From a virus (Duplodnaviria > Heunggongvirae > Uroviricota > Caudoviricetes), in IMG/VR virus record IMGVR_UViG_2534681703_000014, positions 1 through 45,442 of that record: a stretch of DNA of 45,442 bases; one strand, written 5' to 3'. The position numbers and the translations under genes were made by a program. Every line of letters starts with the position of its first letter. Within the stretch, counting starts at the first letter, position 1. This document shows, piece by piece, positions 1-45,442 of the stretch. The notes beneath the pieces are model-generated. The model was not told the DNA's origin and did not search any database. It saw only the letters and a list, made by a program, of their open reading frames with translations.

Positions 1-123
1 CTTTCTCCAAAACCAGAACGGAATTGATTGATTTTGATAGGATCTATAACGCCGTTACATTAAACGGCAAAACCACTCAAAAACAAACTTAATGCATTGA
101 ATATAAAGGATTAATCATCTAAT
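1..123. repeat. Left copy of perfect 123-bp direct repeat (att-containing; may extend beyond window edge)
   Basis: Bases 1-123 are identical to 45320-45442 by direct comparison; lies immediately outside the integrase gene. Confidence 0.85.
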
Positions 124-184
124 TCGCTCACCTTCTTATTCATAAGGCGGGACACTTTCAGGATTTTGAATTTATTCAATTTTT

Positions 185-222
185 CCTTTCTCCAAAATCT
201 CTCCAAAACGTTTCCCCAAAAC
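185..222. repeat. Reiterated TCTCCAAAA(C/T) motifs next to int; candidate integrase arm-type binding sites
   Basis: Motif TCTCCAAAAC occurs at 4-13 (inside the repeat), 188-197, 199-208 and as TCCCCAAAAC at 213-222; arm-site role is inference. Confidence 0.35.
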
Positions 223-285
223 TAGGCCACGCATTTTACAACACTTTTTTCCTGAGATGGTGACGGATATTCCATATGGTGTTTG

Positions 286-1404
286 TCAAATAACCAACTT
301 AACCCATTCCTGACCTCGAGTATCGTTATAGCGATCGGTGGTTGCCTGGACTTTATGCCCTAGTAATGTTTTTGTATCGATACCCTGTGCACGGTACAGC
401 CGTTCTGATAGAGAGCGTTGTTCATGAAATGTTGGCGGAGTTTTTCCTGCTGGTGGAATTATCCCAGCCAGATCCCGTGCTTTGGCAAAGTAGTCGCTCA
501 GGTTGTCTTTACTCATCGGCTTCGGTTGTTTCTGGTGCCGACTATGGATTAGATATGGACTTAATATTCTGTCTCGGCACCCATCAATAACTTCTTTTAA
601 CGTTATCCCAATGGCATCACAGCGTAGTGTAAGCGGTAACGCCAGACGCATTCCGGTTTTTCCCTGGGTGATATGCAAGTGTTCGTTCCACACATCTGAA
701 AAACGCATGTGGCAAATGTCATCACGGCGCTGACCAGTAACAATCGCAAGAAGCATTGCGTTACGGATAAAGTGTTTTTCAGGCGTTGCATTGTAAATTT
801 TTTGCCAGTCTTCCATGGTGAGCCTGGCTCTGGTTACTTTAGGGATCGGTTTACGGGTAGCCTCCGGAGGATTCCATCCAGGAGGAACTTCCCCTGCATG
901 CTGTGCTTCTTTATAAATATCAACCCATAATCCACGATTTACTCTCGCTGTGCTGACCATGTCTTTATCCAGCCACTCATCCAGTATTAATGCAAAGTCT
1001 CTTACTTCCAGTTCTTTCAATGGGTGGTTTCCCAGACGGGAAACCAGGTATGCAGCCATTCGAGTTTTTTCTTTGTGAGTTGTAGCTGCAATATCTCCAT
1101 TTTTCAGTCGCGCGTCCTGTATTTTCAGATATCGATCAACCCATGCCTTTAATCTGATGCCCCGACGTTTTGTTGCTGACGGACTTTCATCAATTTTGCG
1201 CATGAAATATTCAGCTTCTGCTGCAGCTATTCGCTGATTGGCTGTGGAAGCGATTTTTTCTGCTTTGCCTTTGTCTGTTCCGAGACCGTGAAATTTTCCA
1301 GTCACAGGGTTTTTATACTGGTAGTAAACCCTGCCAGTTCTGCGATCAAACTTTTCGTAAAGACCGGTTACGTCAGTGCTGTTTTTTCGTGGCCTCGGTG
1401 ACAT
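286..1404 (-). CDS. int: Tyrosine-type site-specific integrase (lambda Int family)
   Basis: 372-aa ORF at prophage end, beside the repeat; C-terminal region with R...HxxR...Y-type catalytic layout typical of phage integrases; AAGGAG SD 10 nt upstream of ATG. Confidence 0.9.
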   Translation of the reverse strand: MSPRPRKNSTDVTGLYEKFDRRTGRVYYQYKNPVTGKFHGLGTDKGKAEKIASTANQRIAAAEAEYFMRKIDESPSATKRRGIRLKAWVDRYLKIQDARLKNGDIAATTHKEKTRMAAYLVSRLGNHPLKELEVRDFALILDEWLDKDMVSTARVNRGLWVDIYKEAQHAGEVPPGWNPPEATRKPIPKVTRARLTMEDWQKIYNATPEKHFIRNAMLLAIVTGQRRDDICHMRFSDVWNEHLHITQGKTGMRLALPLTLRCDAIGITLKEVIDGCRDRILSPYLIHSRHQKQPKPMSKDNLSDYFAKARDLAGIIPPAGKTPPTFHEQRSLSERLYRAQGIDTKTLLGHKVQATTDRYNDTRGQEWVKLVI

Positions 1405-1642
1405 GAGTTAAAATCTCCTTCAGTGCATCATCATCGCCAGTATGAATTTCCGGCGCAATTCCCGTTTCACCAGGTCCAACAAATACTGCCCGGCGATCTA
1501 TCAGCCAACGCCCACGAATTTTTTGTGGTCTTGGAACGATGTATCCTAGTTTTCCGTATTTCACCAGGGTAGTGTTTGTTATTGGGAGACTGAACCGTTT
1601 TGGTTTCCACTCGTCGAGCGTTATCAGGTACTGTTCGCTCAT
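1373..1642 (-). CDS. xis: Excisionase (Xis-like)
   Basis: 89-aa ORF immediately upstream of and overlapping int; N-terminus YLITLDEW resembles lambda Xis YLTLQEW; GGAG SD before ATG at 1642. Confidence 0.7.
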   Translation of the reverse strand: MSEQYLITLDEWKPKRFSLPITNTTLVKYGKLGYIVPRPQKIRGRWLIDRRAVFVGPGETGIAPEIHTGDDDALKEILTHVTEATKKQH

Positions 1643-1703
1643 GGCTATCACTCCGGAACGCGCCAGTTGCAGAATACCAACGACAACTGGCGACGGTTGA
1701 ACA

Positions 1704-4175
1704 TTAAAAATCAGCCTGACTCGGGATCAGTTTTTGCCAGATAGCTGAAACGTATTTTGCCTGGTAACGAGCGTCATCAAGTGCATTATGGCGCTCACCT
1801 TCGAATGGGATAGCAGTTCTGGCATCGAAGTCTATGGCTTTCCCCAGCTCAACGATTGTGCGTACATCGCGATCGTTGTAGTAACGCCACGGGCAGGGGA
1901 TCCCCTGCCGCTCGTATGAACGGCGCAAAATAGTGTTGTCGAAGTTGGCTCCATTTCCCCAGACCTGAACAAAAAATTCACCGGAGTTTTCGTCGATAAA
2001 TTCCCGCAATTGTAACAGTGCATCATCTAACGGGATTTCATCGGTCATAATGGCAGATTGCGCTTCGCGTGATTGTTTAAGCCACCATTTAATGGTGTCC
2101 CGATCAATGACTCCGCCAGCAGTTTCCAGATCGATAGTCTTACTAAATTCCGGTCCCATATCTCCGGTTTGCGGATCGAAAAATATTGCACCTATTGAGA
2201 TAATCGGGGCATCGGGATTTTTTCCCATGGTTTCAAGGTCGATCATCAGATGAATCCCCGCTCTGCTGGTGGATGTGAGATTATGATGACCGTTCGCCTT
2301 AATTAAGGGATCTGACGCCTCGCCAGTTTCACTATCGCTGGCATGATGCTGATTGCCGCCAGTGTTCTCCTTGTGCTGATGCGCAGTGCCTTCCATTTCC
2401 TCCGGATCATTTTCCTGAACTTCAGGCTGATTCTCTCCATCGAATATTTCCTGGTATGTTGCGTCACCCATCACCGCACCACAATCAGGGCAGTTGCCGC
2501 CACCGCTCTGACCGCAGGCGGTGCAGATCTTTTCCGGTTCCTGTTGCACTACTGGTTCAGGTTGTTTCGTTTCTGGCTCGTTTTGTTGCGTATTTTGGCT
2601 GTTTTGTTCCGCTTTCTGGTCGTTCTGTTCCGTTTCTTGCTGGTTCTGGTTCGCAGAATCGCGGGTCTGGATCCCCTTAACCCATTTCGGATCATTCGGG
2701 TCGCTAATCCCTTCAACAAATTCACCACGTGATACTGCAAGCAGTTCATCGGCGTCAGGCTGGCTGATATTGGCTGCCTGCATAATTTTGTTTACTTCGT
2801 CAGCGGTAACTTTTACCGGTTCTGGCTGTGCGGTCGTGTCAGATGCACCAGTATTTTGTTGTGAACCTGAGTATGTACCGTTTTTGCGGGCGAAATATTC
2901 TTCTTTCGTGATTTCAGTAGCCCCTGCAGCCAGTGCCTTATCCAGACCAGAAAGTTTGTTTGCGCGACCGTATTTTTCGCCATCCTTGTCGGTGAAGAGG
3001 AAGTAGAACGGCCCCTCACGCTCTACAGATGGTTCGACTTCCACTTTGCATTCGGTTTTTTCGTTGTCCGGAATTGCCGTTTCCACTGCATCAGTTTCTG
3101 GTACTGGCGACGAGAGAGTATCAGTTGCGCTCTGATTTGTTCCTTCATCTTCAAACACGCCCTTTGTAGTCAGGTATTCAGTAATGTATTTGTTCAGTGC
3201 CACAGGATCTTTGTGAATGTCGATCGGACGTCCACGGACAAGGCCAAAAATAGTCTGGCGGTCGTAGCGAAGGGCATCAGGCTGTTTGCGCATCGATGCC
3301 GAGATACGCTTCCAGTCTTCGCGGTCGTTGTCGATAACTTCATTTTTTGCCCAGCGATGGATGCTGCCGTCAATGTTTCCGGCATCCACATCACCAGGCC
3401 AGAGAGCGTAGGCCAGTTCGTCATCCAGTGTTTTCCATGTCTGCTTGTATTCGCGATGAATGACTGCAGTGACAGGGGAGATATTTTCTGCTGAGTTTTC
3501 AGTGTGCTGTCGGTTGACTCTGGCGCGGGCGAGATCAACAGCAGACGTGTATTTTCCGGTTTCCTTGCGTTCACCTTCGCGACGTTTTTTCCAGATGCGC
3601 ATCTCTGCCTGAATTTCGGGCCATTTAGCTCCAGGCTTACATTTATGCTTAACCCACCCGATGGCATGCAACTTAAGTTCTGGATACATGGCGTTAACTT
3701 CTGGCATTTTCATCAACGCTTCAACGATATGTCCGTCGAATGTTGCCATGTCTTCCTGCAACAATTCCTGCGCGCTAATCACCATATCAACGGTGATGTT
3801 TTCACATGTGTCGAACTTAACCATGACAGCGTTCTGTACTTCAGGGGCCAGCTTGTCAAAAGTGACGTTCATCGGATCTGATTCAGTCTCAACCGGGACA
3901 AAGGAAGCAGACTCCTCATCCCAGCGGTTTTCCTGCATATATTCAGCATCCCAGGAATCGAGGGCAGGGCGGGGTATACCGGGTTTATCCTCGCAAACAA
4001 GAAATTTATAAGCGCAGTCCTGAGCAGCCGGATATTGCTCCAGGAATTGCCAGGTAAATTTGGCACGGGCGCGGCGTTCGTCACCGGCTTCAATGGCAGT
4101 GGCTACAGCAACTGCACCTTCTTCCTTTATTGCCTGTTCGTCCGGAATGGCAGCGCAAATAAAGACTTTACTCAT
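1704..4175 (-). CDS. Prophage exonuclease, 823 aa, with C-terminal DnaQ-like (DEDDh) 3'-5' exonuclease domain
   Basis: C-terminal motifs MIDLETMG ... HNALDDA fit the DnaQ/RNase T fold; central Q/N/E-rich low-complexity linker; position matches the exo slot of lambdoid early-left operons. Confidence 0.8.
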   Translation of the reverse strand: MSKVFICAAIPDEQAIKEEGAVAVATAIEAGDERRARAKFTWQFLEQYPAAQDCAYKFLVCEDKPGIPRPALDSWDAEYMQENRWDEESASFVPVETESDPMNVTFDKLAPEVQNAVMVKFDTCENITVDMVISAQELLQEDMATFDGHIVEALMKMPEVNAMYPELKLHAIGWVKHKCKPGAKWPEIQAEMRIWKKRREGERKETGKYTSAVDLARARVNRQHTENSAENISPVTAVIHREYKQTWKTLDDELAYALWPGDVDAGNIDGSIHRWAKNEVIDNDREDWKRISASMRKQPDALRYDRQTIFGLVRGRPIDIHKDPVALNKYITEYLTTKGVFEDEGTNQSATDTLSSPVPETDAVETAIPDNEKTECKVEVEPSVEREGPFYFLFTDKDGEKYGRANKLSGLDKALAAGATEITKEEYFARKNGTYSGSQQNTGASDTTAQPEPVKVTADEVNKIMQAANISQPDADELLAVSRGEFVEGISDPNDPKWVKGIQTRDSANQNQQETEQNDQKAEQNSQNTQQNEPETKQPEPVVQQEPEKICTACGQSGGGNCPDCGAVMGDATYQEIFDGENQPEVQENDPEEMEGTAHQHKENTGGNQHHASDSETGEASDPLIKANGHHNLTSTSRAGIHLMIDLETMGKNPDAPIISIGAIFFDPQTGDMGPEFSKTIDLETAGGVIDRDTIKWWLKQSREAQSAIMTDEIPLDDALLQLREFIDENSGEFFVQVWGNGANFDNTILRRSYERQGIPCPWRYYNDRDVRTIVELGKAIDFDARTAIPFEGERHNALDDARYQAKYVSAIWQKLIPSQADF

Positions 4176-38800: not shown

Positions 38801-39552
38801 GGATTGAGGATGTTGATGGTCAGACCCTGAGTAACATTCTGCTGCAGGCCGATCGCATTGCGATGATTACCCCGGAGAACGGTAACACCACGCCGCTGTT
38901 TGTGGCGCAGGGGAATCAGCTGTTCATGAACGACGTGTTCCTGAAGCGACTATTTGCGGTGAGCATCACGTCATCCGGTAATCCTCCGGCATTCTCCATG
39001 ACACCGGACGGGCGGCTGACGGCGAGAAATGCTGATATCAGCGGTAACGTGAATGCGAATTCCGGGACGCTCAACAACGTCACGATTAATCAGAACTGCC
39101 GGATCCTTGGAAAACTGTCAGCCAGCCAGATTGAAGGCGATATTGTCAAAACGGTGGGTAAGGCTTTCCCGCGAAATGGAAGTTATGCCAGTGGCACTAT
39201 AACCGTCACGGTTTATGATGATCAGGGATTCGACCGGCAGATTATCATTCCGCCGGTATTATTTCGTGGTACGAAACACCAGAATTTCAACAGTCATAAC
39301 CAACAGTCATACTGGTATTCCACCTGCAAGCTGCAGGTGTTTAAAAACGGGGCTGAGATTTTCCATGAACCGGCAACGGATGTCAGCCGGGTGTTCTCAT
39401 CGGTGATAGATATGCCGGCAGGACGGGGTCATGTCACCCTGACGTTTAATGTGTCGTCGACCGGCGCGAACAAATGGACGCCGACAACGTACATCAGCGA
39501 TTTACTGGTGGTGGTCATGAAAAAATCCACGGCAGGAATCAGTATCAGCTGA
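35851..39552 (+). CDS. Host specificity (central tail fiber) protein J, 1233 aa
   Basis: Size, position after I, overall similarity to lambda J by recollection. Confidence 0.85.
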
Positions 39553-39571
39553 CGATTTATTAACCCGGAGG

Positions 39572-39595
39572 GGCACCCGAAGCGGTGCCTTTTTT
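39572..39595 (+). terminator. Rho-independent terminator after J
   Basis: Hairpin GGCACC-CGAAGC-GGTGCC followed by TTTTTT. Confidence 0.6.
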
Positions 39596-39619
39596 ATTGA
39601 CTGAAAACGAGAGGTAATC

Positions 39620-40231
39620 ATGCGCCATATTTTATTTTTTGTCGCTTTTCTGGCAGGAATGGCCCTTCCTGCGCAGGCTGAAGTCGGACACGGTGCGTTT
39701 TCCGTGGGATATGCTCAGGTTCACCCGGGCGGCGTGCCGGCATTGTCCGGTACCGGTGCCCGTACAGGTGATTTAAAAGGGATTAACGTGAAATACCGTT
39801 ATGAATTCACGGACCATGCGGGTGGTATTGTTTCGCTGAGTTATGCGTCGGCGAAAAAAAGCGACACGATGAAGACGGGTGAAAATACGCTCCATTATGA
39901 AAGCCTGCGCGGTCGTTATGTGAGTCTGATGGCCGGCCCTGTCTGGCAGGTCAGTGAGCAGGTCAGTCTCTATGGCACGGCTGGGATGGCTTACACCCGC
40001 TGGTCTGACAGTGTTCAGGATTACCGACGTGATGAATTGAAACCGGGGTATGTGAAGGAGACGACCACCGCCAGTGATGGCTATACCGCACGACACCTGT
40101 CGCTGGCATGGGGTGCGGGTCTTCAGTTCAGCCCGGCAGAAACGGTGACTATTGACCTTGCTTATGAAGGCTCCGGCAGTGGTGACTGGCGCACTGACGG
40201 TTTCATCGTGGGTGTCGGTTATAAGTTCTGA
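39620..40231 (+). CDS. lom: Outer membrane beta-barrel protein of the Ail/Lom/OmpX family
   Basis: Signal peptide MRHILFFVAFLAGMALPAQA, beta-strand-rich, C-terminal ...GVGYKF; lom position downstream of J. Confidence 0.85.
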   Translation: MRHILFFVAFLAGMALPAQAEVGHGAFSVGYAQVHPGGVPALSGTGARTGDLKGINVKYRYEFTDHAGGIVSLSYASAKKSDTMKTGENTLHYESLRGRYVSLMAGPVWQVSEQVSLYGTAGMAYTRWSDSVQDYRRDELKPGYVKETTTASDGYTARHLSLAWGAGLQFSPAETVTIDLAYEGSGSGDWRTDGFIVGVGYKF

Positions 40232-40258
40232 TTAGCCAGGTAACACAGTGTTATGACA

Positions 40259-40284
40259 GCCCGCCGGTTCAGGCGGGCTTTTTT
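40259..40284 (+). terminator. Rho-independent terminator after lom
   Basis: Hairpin GCCCGCC-GGTTCA-GGCGGGC followed by TTTTTT. Confidence 0.6.
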
Positions 40285-40295
40285 GTGGGGTGAAT

Positions 40296-42419
40296 ATGGC
40301 AGTAAAGATTTCAGGTGTGCTGAAAGACGGGGCGGGTAAGCCTGTCGTAAATTGTGCGATTGAACTGCGGGCCAGAAGAACCAGTCCGACCGTTGTGGCA
40401 CACGTTGTCGCCACTTGTGTGACGGACAATAACGGTGCTTATGTGATTGAGGCTGAGCCGGGGTATTACGAGGTTGCGCTTAACCGTAACGGCTGGCAGC
40501 CAACCCGTGTCGGGGATATTTATGTGGCACCGACTGACACACCTGGGACACTGAACGCGTTTCTGGATGCACCAAAGGATGGTGATTTACGTCCGGAGGT
40601 GATGAAGCGTTTTGAGGAAATGGTGGATGCAGTTACCCGGCAGTCAGAGCAGGTCACTGATGACCGTAAAAGAGCAGAGTCGGCAGCGGATACAGCAACA
40701 AACGCAGCGACCTCTGCTCTTGACAGTAAAAATAAGGCAGAAGAGCTGAAAAATCAGGCACAGCAGAGCGCCGAAGCGGCTGCAAAAAGCGAGCAGAACG
40801 CAAAAAGTCACGCTGATAATGCAGCCGGAAGCGCACAACAGACTGCACAGGATGTGACAGCAACCGAAACGGCCCGTGATGACGCAGAGCGTTTTGCGAA
40901 TGAGGCAGAAAACAGTGCTCAGGCATCAGGGGCAGCGCGGAATGAATCGGTTGATGCAGCCGGACGCGCCAGTCAGTATAAGGAAGCAGCATCTTTGGCT
41001 GCGACCAGTGCAGAAAATGCGGCAAATGTTGCGCTGGGCCATGAAAATAACGCTGCCGAATACGCCCGGCAGGCGAAGGCCAGCCAGGATGCGAGCGCAG
41101 GCAATGCGCAGGAAGCGAAACAGCAGAGGGACGAGGCGCAACGGATTGTTGATGACCTGAAGGGAAGCAATGCTTCCACAACAGAAAAAGGCCTGGTGCA
41201 ACTCTGTAGTGATACAGACAACGACAGCGAGGAACTGGCAGCCACACCAAAAGCCGTCAAAACCGTCATGGACGAGACGAAAACAAAAGCGCCGCTGGAC
41301 AGCCCGGCATTCACCGGCACACCCACCACACCAACCCCACCGGACGATGCTGCCGGTCTGGAAACAGCGAACGCGGCATTTGTTCGCAAACTGCTTGCTG
41401 CGCTGGTTGACTCGTCACCGGAAGCCCTGGACACGCTGAACGAGCTGGCAGCAGCGCTGGGCAATGACCCGAACTTTGCGACAACGGTTACTAAAGCACT
41501 GGCAGGTAAACAGCCGCTTAACAATACGTTAACCAATATCAGCAAGGTAGGGGTGGGACAAAACTCTCTCCTTTATTTTGGTGATAACTTTGAGGCAAAA
41601 GCAATTCCATGCAGCAACAAGGCTCGCTTATTACTGTCACGAAACACGCCTGGAGACATGCGCACGGAGCTTGGACTGAAAGCTGCTGCTACGATGGAAC
41701 CCCAGAGCTATATCCGCGACCGCGCACCGGGCAGGCTGGCACTGTCCGGTATGCATGGGTTCGGTCAGGCATTTGCCAGCACCGAAGCCCTGACATTTAA
41801 CGGGCAGGCCGATTTTGTTGAATGGCTGAAAGTGGCCACGCCGGGGCGTTATGCGGTCAGTCTTGCGGATTCTTCCATGCTGCTGGTAGGCACCAAGAAA
41901 TTTAACGGCATCATTGATGTGATGTGGTCGCCCTTTGATAACGATGAGTCGGACACAATACGCAAATTCAAAACACTGCTGTGTTTTAACCAGTATTACG
42001 AAGGTGAGCATAGTATTCATTTCCTGACTTACCGCTTTAGTGGAAACAACTGGAATGCAACAGTAAGCCCCATTATTTACGACGGCGATTCGCTGGCCTT
42101 CCTGCTGTCCAGGACGGCGGGCTCAGGCTCATATTTCAAATACCCGGCAGTGGGTGTTCCAGTGCTGGCTGTTTATCGCGGAACAACTTTCGGGGATAAA
42201 GAAATCAATATTGGCCTGGGTGATGTGGTGCAGGGGTCACAACTGGGCGGAGTTAATCTTTCGTGCTTAATATCTTCTCCTGGGGTTGGCTCCTACAATT
42301 CCGCACCGAGTGCAGGAGCTACAGGGTACACTTTCCCGGGGCGTTATATGGCGCTATCCGGGGTCAGGGACTCTAAAGGAATAACCGGTCGTATCTGCCT
42401 GTTTGTGCGCATCGAGTAA
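40296..42419 (+). CDS. stf: Side tail fiber protein (Stf-like)
   Basis: N-terminus MAVKISGVLKDGAGKPV... and internal ...LAATPKAVKTVMDETKTKAPLDSPAFTGTPT... match lambda Stf as I recall it; Ala/Ser-rich repeats. Confidence 0.85.
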   Translation: MAVKISGVLKDGAGKPVVNCAIELRARRTSPTVVAHVVATCVTDNNGAYVIEAEPGYYEVALNRNGWQPTRVGDIYVAPTDTPGTLNAFLDAPKDGDLRPEVMKRFEEMVDAVTRQSEQVTDDRKRAESAADTATNAATSALDSKNKAEELKNQAQQSAEAAAKSEQNAKSHADNAAGSAQQTAQDVTATETARDDAERFANEAENSAQASGAARNESVDAAGRASQYKEAASLAATSAENAANVALGHENNAAEYARQAKASQDASAGNAQEAKQQRDEAQRIVDDLKGSNASTTEKGLVQLCSDTDNDSEELAATPKAVKTVMDETKTKAPLDSPAFTGTPTTPTPPDDAAGLETANAAFVRKLLAALVDSSPEALDTLNELAAALGNDPNFATTVTKALAGKQPLNNTLTNISKVGVGQNSLLYFGDNFEAKAIPCSNKARLLLSRNTPGDMRTELGLKAAATMEPQSYIRDRAPGRLALSGMHGFGQAFASTEALTFNGQADFVEWLKVATPGRYAVSLADSSMLLVGTKKFNGIIDVMWSPFDNDESDTIRKFKTLLCFNQYYEGEHSIHFLTYRFSGNNWNATVSPIIYDGDSLAFLLSRTAGSGSYFKYPAVGVPVLAVYRGTTFGDKEINIGLGDVVQGSQLGGVNLSCLISSPGVGSYNSAPSAGATGYTFPGRYMALSGVRDSKGITGRICLFVRIE

Positions 42420-42432
42420 CGGGGAATAAAAC

Positions 42433-43008
42433 ATGAAAATCAGAGCGGTAAAGGGCATCAGAAACGCCCATTATCTTGAAAATGGTGCGGTTGACTGCGA
42501 GGTGTTATTTGAAGGTGAAACGGAATTCGTCCCGTATACCGCCATGCAGGATGATACCGCACCGACAGGCCAGCGCATCTGGGAAGAGTTGCAGAACGGC
42601 AAATGGGGCGAAATCGCCCCTTTCACTGTCACGCCGGAACTTATCGCCGCGGCGAAGGATGCCAAAAAGCAGGAAATCGAGGCATGGCGCACAGAACAGG
42701 AAGCACTGCCGTTCACCTTTGAATGGAACGGTCGCACCTGGAACGCTGGCCCCGACTCAATGGCCCGTCTTTATCCGGTAGTAATGGCGGCGAAATCTGA
42801 TACGGCACTAACCGCCCTTGCATGGGGTGATGCCGATAATCAACAGGTGAAACTGTCAATGCCGGAACTGGAAGAACTGGCGACAGCAATGGCGCAGGCA
42901 CAGGTCGATCGCAATAACGAGATTTATCAGCGTCAGCGGGAGATGAAGGAAGAACTGAATAATCTTGATGATTTACGCTCAATCCGAGCGTTTGACGTTA
43001 CGCAATAA
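42433..43008 (+). CDS. Putative tail fiber assembly/chaperone protein (atypical, not canonical Tfa)
   Basis: 191-aa ORF immediately after stf; lacks the conserved Tfa C-terminal motif that appears in two fragments farther right. Confidence 0.45.
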   Translation: MKIRAVKGIRNAHYLENGAVDCEVLFEGETEFVPYTAMQDDTAPTGQRIWEELQNGKWGEIAPFTVTPELIAAAKDAKKQEIEAWRTEQEALPFTFEWNGRTWNAGPDSMARLYPVVMAAKSDTALTALAWGDADNQQVKLSMPELEELATAMAQAQVDRNNEIYQRQREMKEELNNLDDLRSIRAFDVTQ

Positions 43009-43228
43009 AAAAACATTGATATGCCAGCCCCTTGTAAAAATATTGAACATGGACGCTTTGAGTTGAATTGGATTTACATGGGGCACCTTGGGGCATATAT
43101 GGGACATAAAAAGGCCTCAGACAAACAGCAAAATCGAGTTCAGGAGTTTTTAGAAAAAATACAACCATCTTAAAAAAACTTAGAAAACGCCCAGAAATCC
43201 ACAGGATGGTAAAAAATATCTATGAATC

Positions 43229-43417
43229 ATGGGTTTCCAGTTATATTCGCTCGGCGCAGCGTTAGTGTTTCATGAAATATTTTTTCCTGAATCATCAACG
43301 GCAATGGCGTTAATTCTGGCAATGGGAACCTACGGTGCAGGTTATGTGGCACGTATTGTCGGAGCATTTATTTTCGGAAAAATGGGCGACAGACGCCGCA
43401 GGACGTACTCGGAGTAG
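43229..43417 (+). pseudogene. Fragment resembling the N-terminal region of an MFS (metabolite:H+ symporter family) transporter
   Basis: LGAALVFHEIFFPESSTAMALILAMGTYGAGYVARIVGAFIFGKMGDRRRR parallels ShiA/ProP-type N-terminal TM1-TM2 region by recollection; ORF truncated at both ends. Confidence 0.35.
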
Positions 43418-43763
43418 TAACGCGTATGGTCATTGCGCCGCGAGTGCCAATAACTTCCACCACAGCACCTGCAAGACAAATATTTCCGCAACCTGTATCT
43501 GTAATAACCTTATTATTTGCATAAGCCCATGAGCCTTTGCACATCCAGTAAGGATGGTTAAATGCCCCCTGACTCTCCAGCCACGAAATAAATTGCGCGG
43601 TTGTCCAGATCTGACTATCGCCACCAATATTCAGCCATGCTCTATATGCGCGGCAGGCACCAATATTTTTGGTGAAGGTATCTTTTACCGGAATATCTGC
43701 ACCGTTCTGGTTTTTCTGTAATGCGCCAGAAGCCTGATTTACCGTTTCCTGTAAACCGAGGTT
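43368..43763 (-). pseudogene. Inverted-orientation C-terminal fragment of a tail fiber gene (stf'-like remnant)
   Basis: Minus-strand frame lacking a start codon (...CRAYRAWLNIGGDSQIWTTAQFISWLESQGAFNHPYWMCKGSWAYANNKVITDTGCGNICLAG...); call rests on its position and orientation beside the pin remnant, not on a recognised motif. Confidence 0.35.
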
Positions 43764-43825
43764 TTAGATAATGGCCGTATCCGGCCTGCATGGCATGATT
43801 TGCGCTTTTGGACGGGAGATTCAGT

Positions 43826-44059
43826 GTGCTGATTGGTTATGTAAGGGTATCAACAAATGACCAGAATACAGACCTGCAACGAAACGCTCTTGTTTGTGCA
43901 GGATGTGAACAAATATTTGAAGATAAATAAAGCGGAACAAGGACAGGCCGACCTGGATTAAAACGTGCTTTAAAGCGCCTTCAAAAAGGTGACGCACTGG
44001 TTGTCTGGAAACTGGACTGACTGGGTCACTGTATGCGGCATCTTGTCGTGCTGGTGGTG
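43826..44059 (+). pseudogene. Serine recombinase DNA invertase (Pin/Gin/Hin family) remnant with two in-frame stops, truncated
   Basis: VLIGYVRVSTNDQNTDLQRNALVCAGCEQIFEDK-stop-SGTRTGRPGLKRALKRLQKGDALVVWKLD-stop-LG..MRHL; in-frame TAA 43928-43930 and TGA 44018-44020; catalytic-Ser N-terminus recognisable. Confidence 0.7.
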
Positions 44060-44152
44060 GAAGCCTGGAAAAAGTATCGGGTGTTGCTGAATCGTGTTGA
44101 TACATCAACTGCACCTGATATTGAGTGGCCTACGAACCCTGTCATGGAGTAA
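44060..44152 (+). pseudogene. Tail fiber assembly protein (Tfa) C-terminal fragment fused in frame to the pin remnant
   Basis: [30 protein letters not shown] matches the conserved Tfa C-terminus as I recall it. Confidence 0.65.
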
Positions 44153-44206
44153 TCATTGGGATTATGCCGCAGCACGTCTTAAGCAAGAACGTGCTGCGGT
44201 TGGATG

Positions 44207-44875
44207 CTATTTTTTCCCTGAAGCGGAAAACATTACTACAGTACCTTGAACCTTGGTTTTAACATTCTCGAAATGCTCTGAGAGTATATGCGTTAAGCCT
44301 TCTTCGGAATCTTTTGTGTTTGAAAAGATGCCTTTCTGATTGTAAATGCGCATCAGTTTTTGACCGAAGCTATTGTGCACAACTCCATCGCCAAGAATTG
44401 TGGCTCCGTATAGAGTTCCATCGTCAGTTAAGGCCTGCGCCGCATTGCGTATTACACAGCTTTTTGTAGATATATTTCCAGGCAGGCAGTGAAGAAGGTA
44501 AAACATGGAAATGGAATCAAATTGACCATGTAACGCCGCGGGATAAGGTTCAAAAACATCATGGCTAATTTTATGTTTAATTTTTGATTCCCCAGCCCTT
44601 GTAGATGCCGCGTTCAGGCTAGCTTCGTTCAAATCCATTAAAGATATCAGACTACTCTCAGGTACGTGAGTAAGGTAAAACCCAGTTCCAACACCAATAT
44701 CCAGATGGTTGTTACCTAAATGTTCCAGAAAGTGTGGAAGAAGGTATTCCTTTGTAGGACATCCCCATGCAAGCCGATTTGATACTCCCAAAACCCACCA
44801 GTCATAAAGCTTTAGGGTAAGTGGTGTGTAAATTTTAGCCCCATCATCTGTGTTTTTTTTCATTAATTTCACCAT
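44207..44875 (-). CDS. Class I SAM-dependent methyltransferase (222 aa), AT-rich cargo gene
   Basis: Motif I DIGVGTGFY (Gly-rich SAM-binding loop); low GC relative to flanking phage DNA. Confidence 0.7.
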   Translation of the reverse strand: MVKLMKKNTDDGAKIYTPLTLKLYDWWVLGVSNRLAWGCPTKEYLLPHFLEHLGNNHLDIGVGTGFYLTHVPESSLISLMDLNEASLNAASTRAGESKIKHKISHDVFEPYPAALHGQFDSISMFYLLHCLPGNISTKSCVIRNAAQALTDDGTLYGATILGDGVVHNSFGQKLMRIYNQKGIFSNTKDSEEGLTHILSEHFENVKTKVQGTVVMFSASGKK

Positions 44876-45045
44876 GTTATAGTTTTGTTTGTGAATTAAA
44901 TCAATTATGGCGATGAATTACAAGGGGTTAAATGCTGCCGCAGCATAGCGATATTGAAATAGCCTAGTATGCTTCGATACAGCAGGAGCCGAATGGCTGG
45001 AAGACCGTCACCACACAGTTCTACACCCAGGAATTCAGTGAGTAT

Positions 45046-45198
45046 ATTGCGCCACTGCAGGATGCTGTAGATCTGGAAATCGCAAAGGAGGAAGAAAGAT
45101 CGTTGCTGGAGGCATGGAATAAATATCGGGTATTGTTGAATCGTGTTGATACATCAACTGCACCTGATATTGAGTGGCCGACTTCACCTGCAGAGTAA
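45046..45198 (+). pseudogene. Second Tfa C-terminal fragment
   Basis: [50 protein letters not shown]; no N-terminal part (in-frame stop at 44965-44967). Confidence 0.6.
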
Positions 45199-45319
45199 TC
45201 AACGGCGCAGGGATGATATTTTGTGCTTGAAGTGCCTCCCCGACCATTCAGATAGTCGGGGAGGGGTATTGGGATTATACGCAATCAGTTTTAGTTAAAG
45301 ACCGAAGCTCTCGAAAAAT

Positions 45320-45442
45320 CTTTCTCCAAAACCAGAACGGAATTGATTGATTTTGATAGGATCTATAACGCCGTTACATTAAACGGCAAAACCACTCAAA
45401 AACAAACTTAATGCATTGAATATAAAGGATTAATCATCTAAT
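45320..45442. repeat. Right copy of perfect 123-bp direct repeat (att-containing)
   Basis: Identical to 1-123. Confidence 0.85.

Follow-up and report, generated by a model that had tools for sequence, protein, structure and literature searches.

The window analysed here is a stretch of 45,442 nucleotides of phage DNA (IMG/VR record IMGVR_UViG_2534681703_000014), and the region of interest, 43009-45319, occupies the space between the tail-fibre genes and the attachment-site arm at the right-hand end. An initial annotation, made from the letters and open reading frames alone, had described this region as a decayed invertible tail-fibre cassette with an inactivated pin gene. All the elements that it listed are real homologues rather than accidental matches, lying at its coordinates or a few bases away. 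It had not recorded a lone crossover site, a gene module of the type found in DLP12, an attachment-site arm with a piece of the host gene ydfJ, or the nearest relatives. The features of the locus and its surroundings are as follows.

40290-42419, upstream: functional tail-fibre gene stf, whose working partner is the next gene.
42433-43008, plus strand: intact tail-fibre assembly or tip gene, 191 aa, DUF4376 (Pfam E 2e-17; PHROG 1141, tail, E 8e-90).
43009-43237, plus strand: phage-side arm and core of a ydfJ-type attR, core at about 43224-43237 (GAATCATGGGTTTC).
43238-43393, plus strand: captured 156-bp fragment of the bacterial MFS transporter gene ydfJ, starting directly after the att core.
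43393-43394, no strand: illegitimate junction between the ydfJ fragment and a tail-fibre fragment, blunt in a three-way base alignment.
43394-43763, minus strand: fragment of a silent alternative tail-fibre variable part, Mu S'-like (PHROG tail fibre, E 3e-37).
43746-43771, plus strand: orphan crossover site of gix/cix type, 26 bp (TTCCTGTAAACCGAGGTTTTAGATAA; a single match, where shuffled sequences give an expectation of 0).
43826-44057, plus strand: serine DNA invertase pseudogene, the 5' part of a gin/pin gene (Pfam Resolvase; PHROG 'DNA invertase').
44058-44155, plus strand: 3' end of a tfaD-type tail-fibre assembly gene, about 32 codons, fused in frame to the invertase stub.
44207-44875, minus strand: intact class I SAM-dependent methyltransferase, 222 aa (Pfam Methyltransf_12/23/25/11; PHROG 2132, E 3.5e-156).
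44932-45201, plus strand: tfaX-type tail-fibre assembly remnant (Pfam Caudo_TAP, E 5.7e-24, model positions 77-131 of 131).
45320-45442, plus strand: tfa-side arm of the phage's own potB/potC-type attachment site, matching window positions 1-123 at 100%.

The attachment sites at the two ends of this list belong to different insertion loci. The arm at 43009-43237 aligns at about 80% identity to the end of the K-12 prophage Qin that lies beside ydfJ; the annotated Qin boundary maps to about position 43237, and the core is common to the attL side in K-12. In 29 complete Escherichia coli genomes this attR arm is contiguous with ydfJ, and a ydfJ-site prophage of E. coli strain E423 has at its end a stretch that shows 93.8% identity with window 42619-43393. 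Identity to K-12 steps at the core, from about 80% in the phage arm to about 98.7% in the ydfJ fragment. As attL and attR of K-12 share only a core of about 11-14 bp, the 156-bp ydfJ stretch lies outside a normal attP. In E. coli genomes ydfJ runs 1.1 kb further, and in the window it ends at 43393, where the three-way base alignment reveals no obvious microhomology. The joint of ydfJ to the tail-fibre fragment recurs in just two further assemblies, IMGVR_UViG_2534682175_000013 (99.7%) and ERZ1031779 NODE-4093 (99.84%); no complete E. coli genome spans it, and exact patterns of 42 and 23 nt across it are absent from the GTDB representative genomes. The second of these, the metagenome contig L010, matches 42911-45430 at 99.84% identity and gives independent support for the region as a whole. 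The possibility that an invertase made the joint at a pseudo-site was discarded, the joint being 350 bp from the crossover site and devoid of site-like sequence.

At the other end, the first 160 positions of the window have the configuration of an attP, in which the tfaX-side arm, the core CACCTTCTTATTCA (129-142) and the int-side arm are contiguous; its elements were assigned by reference to the attL and attR sequences of strain 504838 and to attB of K-12. On the right, the window breaks off 13 bp before the att core, and a circular phage contig and a tandem prophage array both fit this arrangement. The sole integrase in the window (286-1404) is the one that adjoins potC in strain 504838, and no ydfJ-type integrase is encoded in the window.

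To the right of the blunt joint, the DNA is that of an invertible tail-fibre cassette. The minus-strand frame open from 43368 to 43763 had been proposed to be an inverted tail-fibre segment, and the PHROG match bears this out, with the homology confined to 43394-43763: it ends at 43394-43396, and the last nine codons of the frame are antisense ydfJ. The fragment represents about 120 of about 320 codons of a variable part of S' type, the C-terminal ~200 codons being missing. As protein it is 96.7% identical to two counterparts, Stf of enterotoxigenic E. coli (ETEC) H10407 (1034 aa, aligned at 715-834) and S' of the Mu-like phage PhiR68_1 (332 aa, aligned at 12-132); as DNA it is 96% identical to the H10407 stf gene (L002, 3086-3461), which there stands in the expressed orientation. 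No inverted tfa partner accompanies the fragment, and two alternative tips in opposite orientations, each with its own assembly gene, are not present in the window. The search for crossover sites that had been suggested did yield a site, at 43746-43771, the sole place in the window with the AAACCNNGGTTT core, but not its inverted partner: with up to 6 mismatches allowed, no second site occurs in the 45.4 kb. A single site is likewise carried by L009, L010 and L013, whereas relatives L001, L002, L012, L015, L016 and L017 have two in inverted orientation. The upstream stf-tfa(DUF4376) pair (40290-43008) is of another type than the cassette and lacks a crossover site.

The invertase frame starts with GTG at 43826, reads VLIGYVRVSTNDQ, and is interrupted in frame by TAA at 43928-43930 and TGA at 44018-44020. 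Its first 79 residues match Pfam Resolvase (E 5.7e-21, positions 2-86 of 145) and PHROG 'DNA invertase' (E 6e-34), and the C-terminal 30 residues of the fused frame match tail-fibre-assembly PHROGs (E about 1e-11). The earlier reading of a Pin-like N-terminus with two stops that continues into a Tfa C-terminal motif is thus confirmed. The stub is 86% identical to the intact invertase of a P2-like prophage, 85% to PhiR68_1 Gin and 77% to PinE. It keeps about 78 of the 193-199 codons, corresponding to the first ~230 bp of the gene, and invertase codon ~78 is joined to tfa codon ~157; the C-terminal 115-120 codons or so of intact invertases are gone, and the stub therefore falls short of a complete invertase, which combines a catalytic N-domain with a C-terminal DNA-binding domain. 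The fusion is found in 531 of 5426 complete E. coli genomes (~10%), and the TGA at 44018 is common to all copies of it, so that both are old and did not originate in the window phage. The TAA at 43928 is private to the window, being missing even from L010. Two nonsense codons in one frame, one of them new, indicate that selection on it is absent.

The two tfa fragments had been taken for rearranged pieces of the cassette; they are in fact the flanks of a separate and widespread tfaD-3'/ybcY/tfaX module, known from DLP12 and from cultured lambdoid phages. Over the 1124 bp of window 44055-45178, identity to K-12 positions 582,000-583,121, within DLP12, amounts to 96.7%, and order and strands are conserved. 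Between the flanks lies the methyltransferase, the sole intact gene of the region and the full-length counterpart of the K-12 pseudogene ybcY (96.7% DNA identity). In DLP12 the situation is the reverse of that in the window, ybcY being a pseudogene and tfaD full length, whereas here the methyltransferase is intact and only the last ~32 tfaD codons are left. The same gene also stands 3' of tfa in the cultured phages PhiR26_1, 2G7b and ev243, the first of which annotates it as YbcY. A second Tfa fragment had been placed at 45046-45198; its identity stands on the Caudo_TAP match, but it is longer, extending over 44932-45201. This tfaX remnant carries an in-frame TAG at 44965, where the aligned K-12 tfaX has TGG, and its 3' 79 nt are a 90% direct repeat (family D1) of 44055-44133.

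Comparison with intact invertible systems indicates from what kind of switch the fragments descend. The reference that had been suggested, e14, is not the nearest: the closest intact cassettes are a Mu-like G segment with gin (95.8%) and a P2-like cassette (95.7%). In PhiR68_1, a D108-like member of the Mu-like phages (PV340575.1), the 95.8% DNA identity extends over the S'-gix-gin 5' region, corresponding to window 43394-44016. The crossover sites differ at 2 of 26 positions, and the layout is shared, with the silent S' on the opposite strand followed by the site and then the invertase. In Mu itself there are two sites, the S/U and U'/S' pairs are complete and Gin has 193 aa, whereas the window has one site, 120 S' codons and a 78-codon stub with two stops; moreover, the cassette resides in a lambdoid phage here and in a Mu-like phage in the case of the Mu G segment. 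The P2-like prophage of strain CREC_5, 95.7% identical in DNA, encodes an intact 199-aa invertase. With the prophages at potB/potC in ETEC strains H10407, 504838, E54 and E8, the window shares the attachment site, the TGA stop and, at 97.7% identity, the whole end from the invertase stub through tfaD' and ybcY to tfaX. The ETEC and P2-like relatives keep both crossover sites and both sets of tip and chaperone genes, and both orientations occur among them; in the window, a block of ydfJ lineage appears to have displaced the left site along with the greater part of the segment. The e14 genes pinE-stfE-tfaE (the P region of K-12) form a system of the same type, a Din-family invertase beside an inverted stf/tfa pair, with 73% DNA identity over the invertase; window 44032-44057 is identical to pinE. 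The S' fragment has no significant similarity to StfE, StfP or StfQ, and nothing in the e14 region matches the window crossover site at up to 6 mismatches.

In the relatives at potB/potC, which have a complete cassette with two inverted crossover sites, the segment still inverts. In the near-identical ETEC strains E54 and E8, a 3157-bp segment is 99.87% identical yet lies in opposite orientations, with breakpoints exactly at the sites, while the flanks are 100% identical and collinear. The proposal that the ancestor of this prophage had a host-range switching cassette, since inactivated, is supported by these relatives. Both strains encode the same 64-aa recombinase stub (WP_001421134.1), and from this we infer that inversion in the two-site relatives needs an invertase supplied in trans by another prophage. 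The Fis-dependent recombinational enhancers of Gin, Hin and Cin reportedly sit within the 5' ~230 bp of the gene (Kahmann et al. 1985; Johnson & Simon 1985; Huber et al. 1985), and the retained 5' stub of the two-site relatives may thus provide a putative enhancer in cis. Since relatives with a truncated invertase invert, and the stub is present in ~10% of complete E. coli genomes, host-range switching in many lambdoid prophages may depend on the invertases of other prophages.

In our view, the region is probably the non-functional residue of recombination, deposited in layers. It lies in the accessory slot (the 'b-region') that separates tail-fibre genes from attP in a temperate lambdoid phage whose integration site is potB/potC. 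The first layer would be the normal lambdoid end module, consisting of tfa, a ybcY-type methyltransferase, the tfaX remnant and att. For the second, an ancestor would have held an invertible tail-fibre cassette of Mu-G-segment/P2 type, in the order variable part with tfa, inverted tfa' with S', crossover site and invertase; its fusion to the first layer would have left the invertase stub without its C-terminal half, and the TGA would have been gained later. The invertase may already have been truncated on entry into the lambdoid lineage; as regards the order of these two layers, a lambdoid phage could instead have possessed the whole invertase gene at first and been left with the stub by a subsequent deletion. 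Descent from a Din-family switch is in any case supported by the 95.7-95.8% DNA identity to intact cassettes and by the occurrence of relatives with the same attachment site in both orientations.

The third layer would be specific to the lineage of the window phage. Everything to the left of mid-S' appears to have been replaced, with removal of the left site and both tfa genes, of the constant part of stf and the expressed variable part, and of the final ~200 codons of S'; in place of the left two-thirds of the cassette came stf-tfa(DUF4376)-attR(ydfJ)-ydfJ' from a ydfJ-resident prophage. The exchange would have run past the prophage end, thereby carrying in attR(ydfJ) and 156 bp of ydfJ, with an illegitimate right junction. 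It is this replacement, rather than the older fusion or the TGA, that would have destroyed the switch in the lineage. Most likely, phage DNA in replication recombined twice with a prophage resident at ydfJ (the Qin position), by homology at the left crossover and illegitimately at the right one; the private TAA in the invertase stub would have arisen afterwards. Such a history has published precedents (PMC8112680), both for chromosomal fragments close to the ends of lambdoid prophages and for recombination of ydfJ-site prophages with others. In this history the DUF4376 gene at 42433-43008 is the last phage gene of the imported block. The tie to the ydfJ site is direct from the 3' half of that tfa gene through the ydfJ fragment alone; no donor with a closely matching stf was found, identity to 40290-42600 in E. 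coli reaching 80-89% at best, and no complete E. coli genome, as a candidate donor prophage, covers at least 80% of 39500-43393. With one site, no recombinase and one-third of one alternative tip, host-range switching is impossible in the window phage, and its receptor specificity is fixed by the imported stf and tfa.

Captured host DNA beside an att site also recalls the classical specialised-transducing phages, and an aberrant excision of that type has to be weighed against the double crossover. A ydfJ-resident ancestor would have taken attR with 156 bp of ydfJ, and the potB-type int/att end with its gin-ybcY debris would have been acquired later by recombination. The host DNA does abut an attR-type hybrid site at the tail-fibre end, in the geometry of lambda-bio, and chromosome-derived fragments are known near the ends of lambdoid prophages (PMC8112680). 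The partner at the junction, however, is the middle of S' within an end module of potB lineage, away from any ydfJ-type int or attL, which means that aberrant excision needs an extra event or a tandem ancestor; nor is a ydfJ-type integrase present, the only one being of the type next to potC in strain 504838. We consider this course of events unlikely. The window resembles published cases (Nakamura et al. 2021; PMC8112680) in which short pieces of the E. coli chromosome likewise lie between tail-fibre genes and att, beside att-type sequence. Those pieces are attB-like sequences from yecE, ykgJ/ecpE and ompW at which other phages integrate; the window instead has an attR hybrid site and ydfJ coding sequence, into which nothing is known to integrate.

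The junction might also be read as the endpoint of a chromosomal rearrangement, for example an inversion between prophages at ydfJ and potB, so that the region would join two prophages. Recombination between ydfJ-site and other prophages, inversions included, is documented (PMC8112680), and the K-12 polarity is that of an inversion, with ydfJ directed toward lower and potB toward higher coordinates. Yet the window ends are identical at 100% over 123 bp and the left end is in attP configuration, from which it follows that the 45.3-kb unit, ydfJ' included, acts as one phage or tandem unit; on these grounds the rearrangement was dropped as the main reading. In addition, ydfJ is cut after 156 bp at a non-homologous point, unlike a homologous exchange between prophages, and altogether we regard this origin as very improbable. 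Still harder to credit is that the remnant continues to serve as a substrate for switching, through an invertase in trans and a cryptic partner site, or that the fused invertase-tfa frame gives a useful product. Relatives with the identical truncated invertase do invert, and the part of the gene retained is the known location of the enhancer in Gin, Hin and Cin; against this stand the failure of a second site to appear in 45.4 kb at 6 mismatches, an S' fragment without its C-terminal ~200 codons and its tfa partner, and the two nonsense codons, one newly acquired.

Taken as layered debris, the region is of value for annotation and for the reading of phage history. The short 'recombinase' and 'tail fiber assembly' open reading frames that pipelines call here are fossils, and the ydfJ fragment would be a dated footprint of exchange with a prophage at the Qin position. 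A more far-reaching idea, which we put forward as speculation and think rather unlikely, is that the conserved ~80-nt 3' end of tfa is a portable homology arm for cargo swaps between unrelated tailed phages, and that stubs are kept as enhancers in cis. Candidate cargoes, if this were true, would include the ybcY methyltransferase, invertible cassettes of Mu/P2 type and effector loci; the cis enhancer of the stub would let the invertases of co-resident prophages flip the cassette, and the region would be, beyond debris, an archive of module exchange and 'parasitic' switching.

A few minor observations concern single elements of the region. A scan for promoters and terminators returned no more sites than shuffled sequence. 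In strain E423, PGAP annotates a DinI-like fragment homologous to 43078-43164, but a convincing DinI-like frame is absent in the window and the candidate was rejected. An Rfam match to CssrB at 44136-44198 reaches 32.6 bits against a gathering score of 76 and was set aside as chance or hairpin similarity. When the methyltransferase was compared by sequence with solved structures, the sole similarity was a borderline one, to juvenile hormone acid methyltransferase (E 9e-4). Within the tfaX remnant, 44955-45158 matches Rfam IS009 with 113.5 bits, slightly below the gathering score of 117.

Judged from sequence comparison, the region at 43009-45319 is a scar of three layers, ordinary mosaic prophage debris, occupying an accessory slot with tfa on one side and attP on the other, and the ybcY-type methyltransferase at 44207-44875 is the sole intact gene within it. 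The features discussed below are as follows.

Features of the region
43763-43368, minus strand: tail-fibre (S'-like) fragment, a frame matching PHROG tail fibre (E 3e-37)
43746-43771: 26-bp crossover site TTCCTGTAAACCGAGGTTTTAGATAA, between the fibre fragment and the invertase (0 matches expected in shuffled sequence)
43826-44057, plus strand: serine invertase stub from a GTG; first 79 residues match Pfam Resolvase (E 5.7e-21, model 2-86/145) and PHROG 'DNA invertase' (E 6e-34)
from 44058, plus strand: tfaD 3' end fused to the stub; last 30 residues match tail-fibre-assembly families
44207-44875, minus strand: intact class I SAM methyltransferase, 222 aa, full-length version of the K-12 pseudogene ybcY
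44932-45201, plus strand: second tfa fragment (tfaX-type), Pfam Caudo_TAP (E 5.7e-24), with an in-frame TAG at 44965

The initial annotation had placed an inverted tail-fibre segment in the minus-strand frame 43368-43763 and a Pin-like N-terminus at 43826 that runs in frame into a Tfa end, and the domain matches bear out both. At 96.7% identity, the fibre fragment aligns with residues 12-132 of S' (332 aa) and with residues 715-834 of the H10407 Stf (1034 aa); it gave no significant match to StfE, StfP or StfQ of K-12. At the DNA level, 43394-44016 shares 95.8% identity with S'-gix-gin of the Mu-like phage PhiR68_1, and 43740-44016 shares 95.7% with a P2-like prophage whose 199-aa invertase is intact. 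These comparisons identify 43394-44057 as the right-hand end of an invertible cassette of Mu/P2 type. The e14 element, proposed earlier for comparison, has to be set aside as the closest relative, since the stub shares 86% identity with the P2-like invertase and 85% with Gin, as against 77% with PinE (44% with PinQ), and the fibre fragment lacks a StfE match. The crossover sites expected to flank a former invertible segment were recovered in part: the site at 43746-43771 is present, but as a single copy in the window, as in strain ET151.

At the boundary 44057|44058, where the stub passes into tfaD, the alignment shows a short GCTGG-type microhomology. The fusion and the crossover site occur together in 531 of 5426 complete E. 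coli genomes (~10%). The stop TGA at 44018 is common to every fused copy examined. Only the window carries the TAA at 43928; even metagenome contig ERZ1031779 NODE-4093 reads TTA at that position. Beyond the boundary, 44055-45178 is 96.7% identical to K-12 DLP12 582,000-583,121 (tfaD 3' end, ybcY, tfaX), in which ybcY is a pseudogene while its counterpart here is intact. The cultured lambdoid phages PhiR26_1, 2G7b and ev243 keep this order with their tfa at full length, followed by YbcY and a tfa remnant. The second Tfa C-terminal fragment had thus been correctly recognized, and extends over 44932-45201; its supposed origin, however, as a rearranged piece of the invertible segment does not hold, because collinearity with DLP12 and the cultured phages makes both Tfa fragments the flanks of a module. 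At their 3' ends the two fragments share a 79-nt direct repeat (90% identity). The first layer would then be a lambdoid tfa-ybcY-tfaX end module, to which a Mu/P2-type cassette, the second, was probably joined via the truncated invertase in an old and widespread event. The methyltransferase itself is ~97-98% conserved in many E. coli prophages and cultured lambdoid phages, always flanked by a tfa 3' end and a tfa remnant. GC-rich strong hairpins directly follow the tfa remnants, at 44156-44200 (GCCGCAGCACGT...ACGTGCTGCGG, then a T-run) and 45221-45262 (CCTCCCCGAC...GTCGGGGAGG); they are probably terminators travelling with the tfa 3' ends, and were absent from the list returned by a simple terminator scan of the window. 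Rfam RF02111 'IS009' matches the tfaX-like remnant at 44955-45158 with 113.5 bits (gathering score 117), and also 44030-44109; given this near-threshold match, the family appears to correspond to tail-fibre-assembly gene debris.

The complete cassette survives in potB-site prophages (ETEC 504838, H10407, E54 and E8), which carry stf, tfa, inverted tfa' and S', crossover site, invertase stub, tfaD-3', ybcY, tfaX and potB, with two crossover sites each in inverted orientation. Between E54 (L015, 3720-6876) and E8 (L016, 3382-6538), a 3157-bp segment, 99.87% identical, is inverted with bounds exactly at the two sites, and the sequence on either side is collinear and 100% identical. The encoded 64-aa recombinase stub is the same in both strains, so inversion persists without a cis-encoded invertase. 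Gin, Pin, Cin and Hin can substitute for each other, and hence the agent is likely an invertase from another prophage, acting in trans. The enhancer of such systems is located in the 5' part of the invertase gene, and the retained stub would coincide with it. The second layer may still be invertible in trans wherever both sites survive, which makes a mildly interesting footnote.

In the window, the left two-thirds of the cassette appear to have been replaced, as a third layer specific to this lineage, by an stf-tfa(DUF4376)-attR-ydfJ' block from a ydfJ-resident prophage. Positions 42619-43393 are 93.8% identical to the prophage-remnant end beside ydfJ in E. coli E423, an arrangement found in 29 complete genomes, all of which run on into full-length ydfJ. 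Identity to K-12 rises from ~80% in the phage arm to ~98.7% (2 mismatches in ~156 bp) from the core GAATCATGGGTTTC (43224-43237) on, and the core common to K-12 attL and attR is only ~11-14 bp (given as 18-19 bp in PMC8112680). This step and the short core mark 43238-43393 as bacterial ydfJ rather than attP, so that 43009-43393 reads as ydfJ attR plus captured host DNA, a small curiosity inside a phage genome. The ydfJ sequence stops bluntly at 43393|43394, where S' homology starts, and no clear microhomology was seen there in the alignment. No complete E. coli genome spans this junction, and exact-pattern scans of GTDB representative genomes were empty; it recurs in IMGVR_UViG_2534682175_000013 (99.7% over 6.5 kb) and in the independent metagenome contig ERZ1031779 NODE-4093, which covers 42911-45430 at 99.84% identity, indicating that the arrangement is no assembly accident.

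The fewest events would be needed if replicating phage DNA and a prophage resident at the Qin position underwent a double crossover, with an illegitimate right junction that overshot into the chromosome; lambdoid prophage ends containing chromosomal fragments, and recombination involving ydfJ-site prophages, are documented (PMC8112680). The main rival would derive the ydfJ fragment from aberrant excision from ydfJ. That the junction marks a chromosomal inversion endpoint is unlikely, as the attP-type end of the window speaks against it. Left with a single site, a third of one alternative tip and no recombinase, the window cannot, by its gene content, switch; host range would be fixed by the imported stf and tfa. 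The earlier proposal of an inactivated host-range switching cassette was therefore right about the kind of system and its death, but not about which system is nearest to it, where the tfa fragments came from or what inactivated it. The side tail fibre at 40290-42419 is functional (709 aa, domains phage_tail_N and Phage_fiber_2); among 5426 complete E. coli genomes it has no close counterpart, the best matches reaching 80-89% DNA identity at partial coverage, and its receptor-binding part may thus be of a rare type.

Self-comparison showed that the window ends repeat, 1-123 and 45320-45442 being 100% identical over 123 bp. The att layout was derived from a four-way comparison of K-12 attB, attL and attR of strain 504838, and the window. 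The 504838 integrase adjoins potC and has 97.5% DNA identity to window 129-600, and the potB 3' end directly follows the homologue of the window's right end in ETEC genomes. Positions 1-160 have the attP configuration of a phage that integrates at potB/potC: tfaX-side arm, core CACCTTCTTATTCA (129-142), int-side arm. Given these ends, the 45.3-kb window looks like either a closed circular phage genome whose ends overlap or a single unit from a tandem array of prophages, and not a lone prophage flanked by host DNA. Its structural genes share ~87% identity with lambdoid phages of the mEp460 and Ayreon types. In E. coli O26 strain 97-3250 (L004, 3496-3878), a tfa remnant, a ykgJ fragment and T3SS effector genes (EspM2, EspW, NleG) precede the same integrase, which suggests that the slot holding gin/ybcY debris here is an exchangeable effector locus in STEC prophages.
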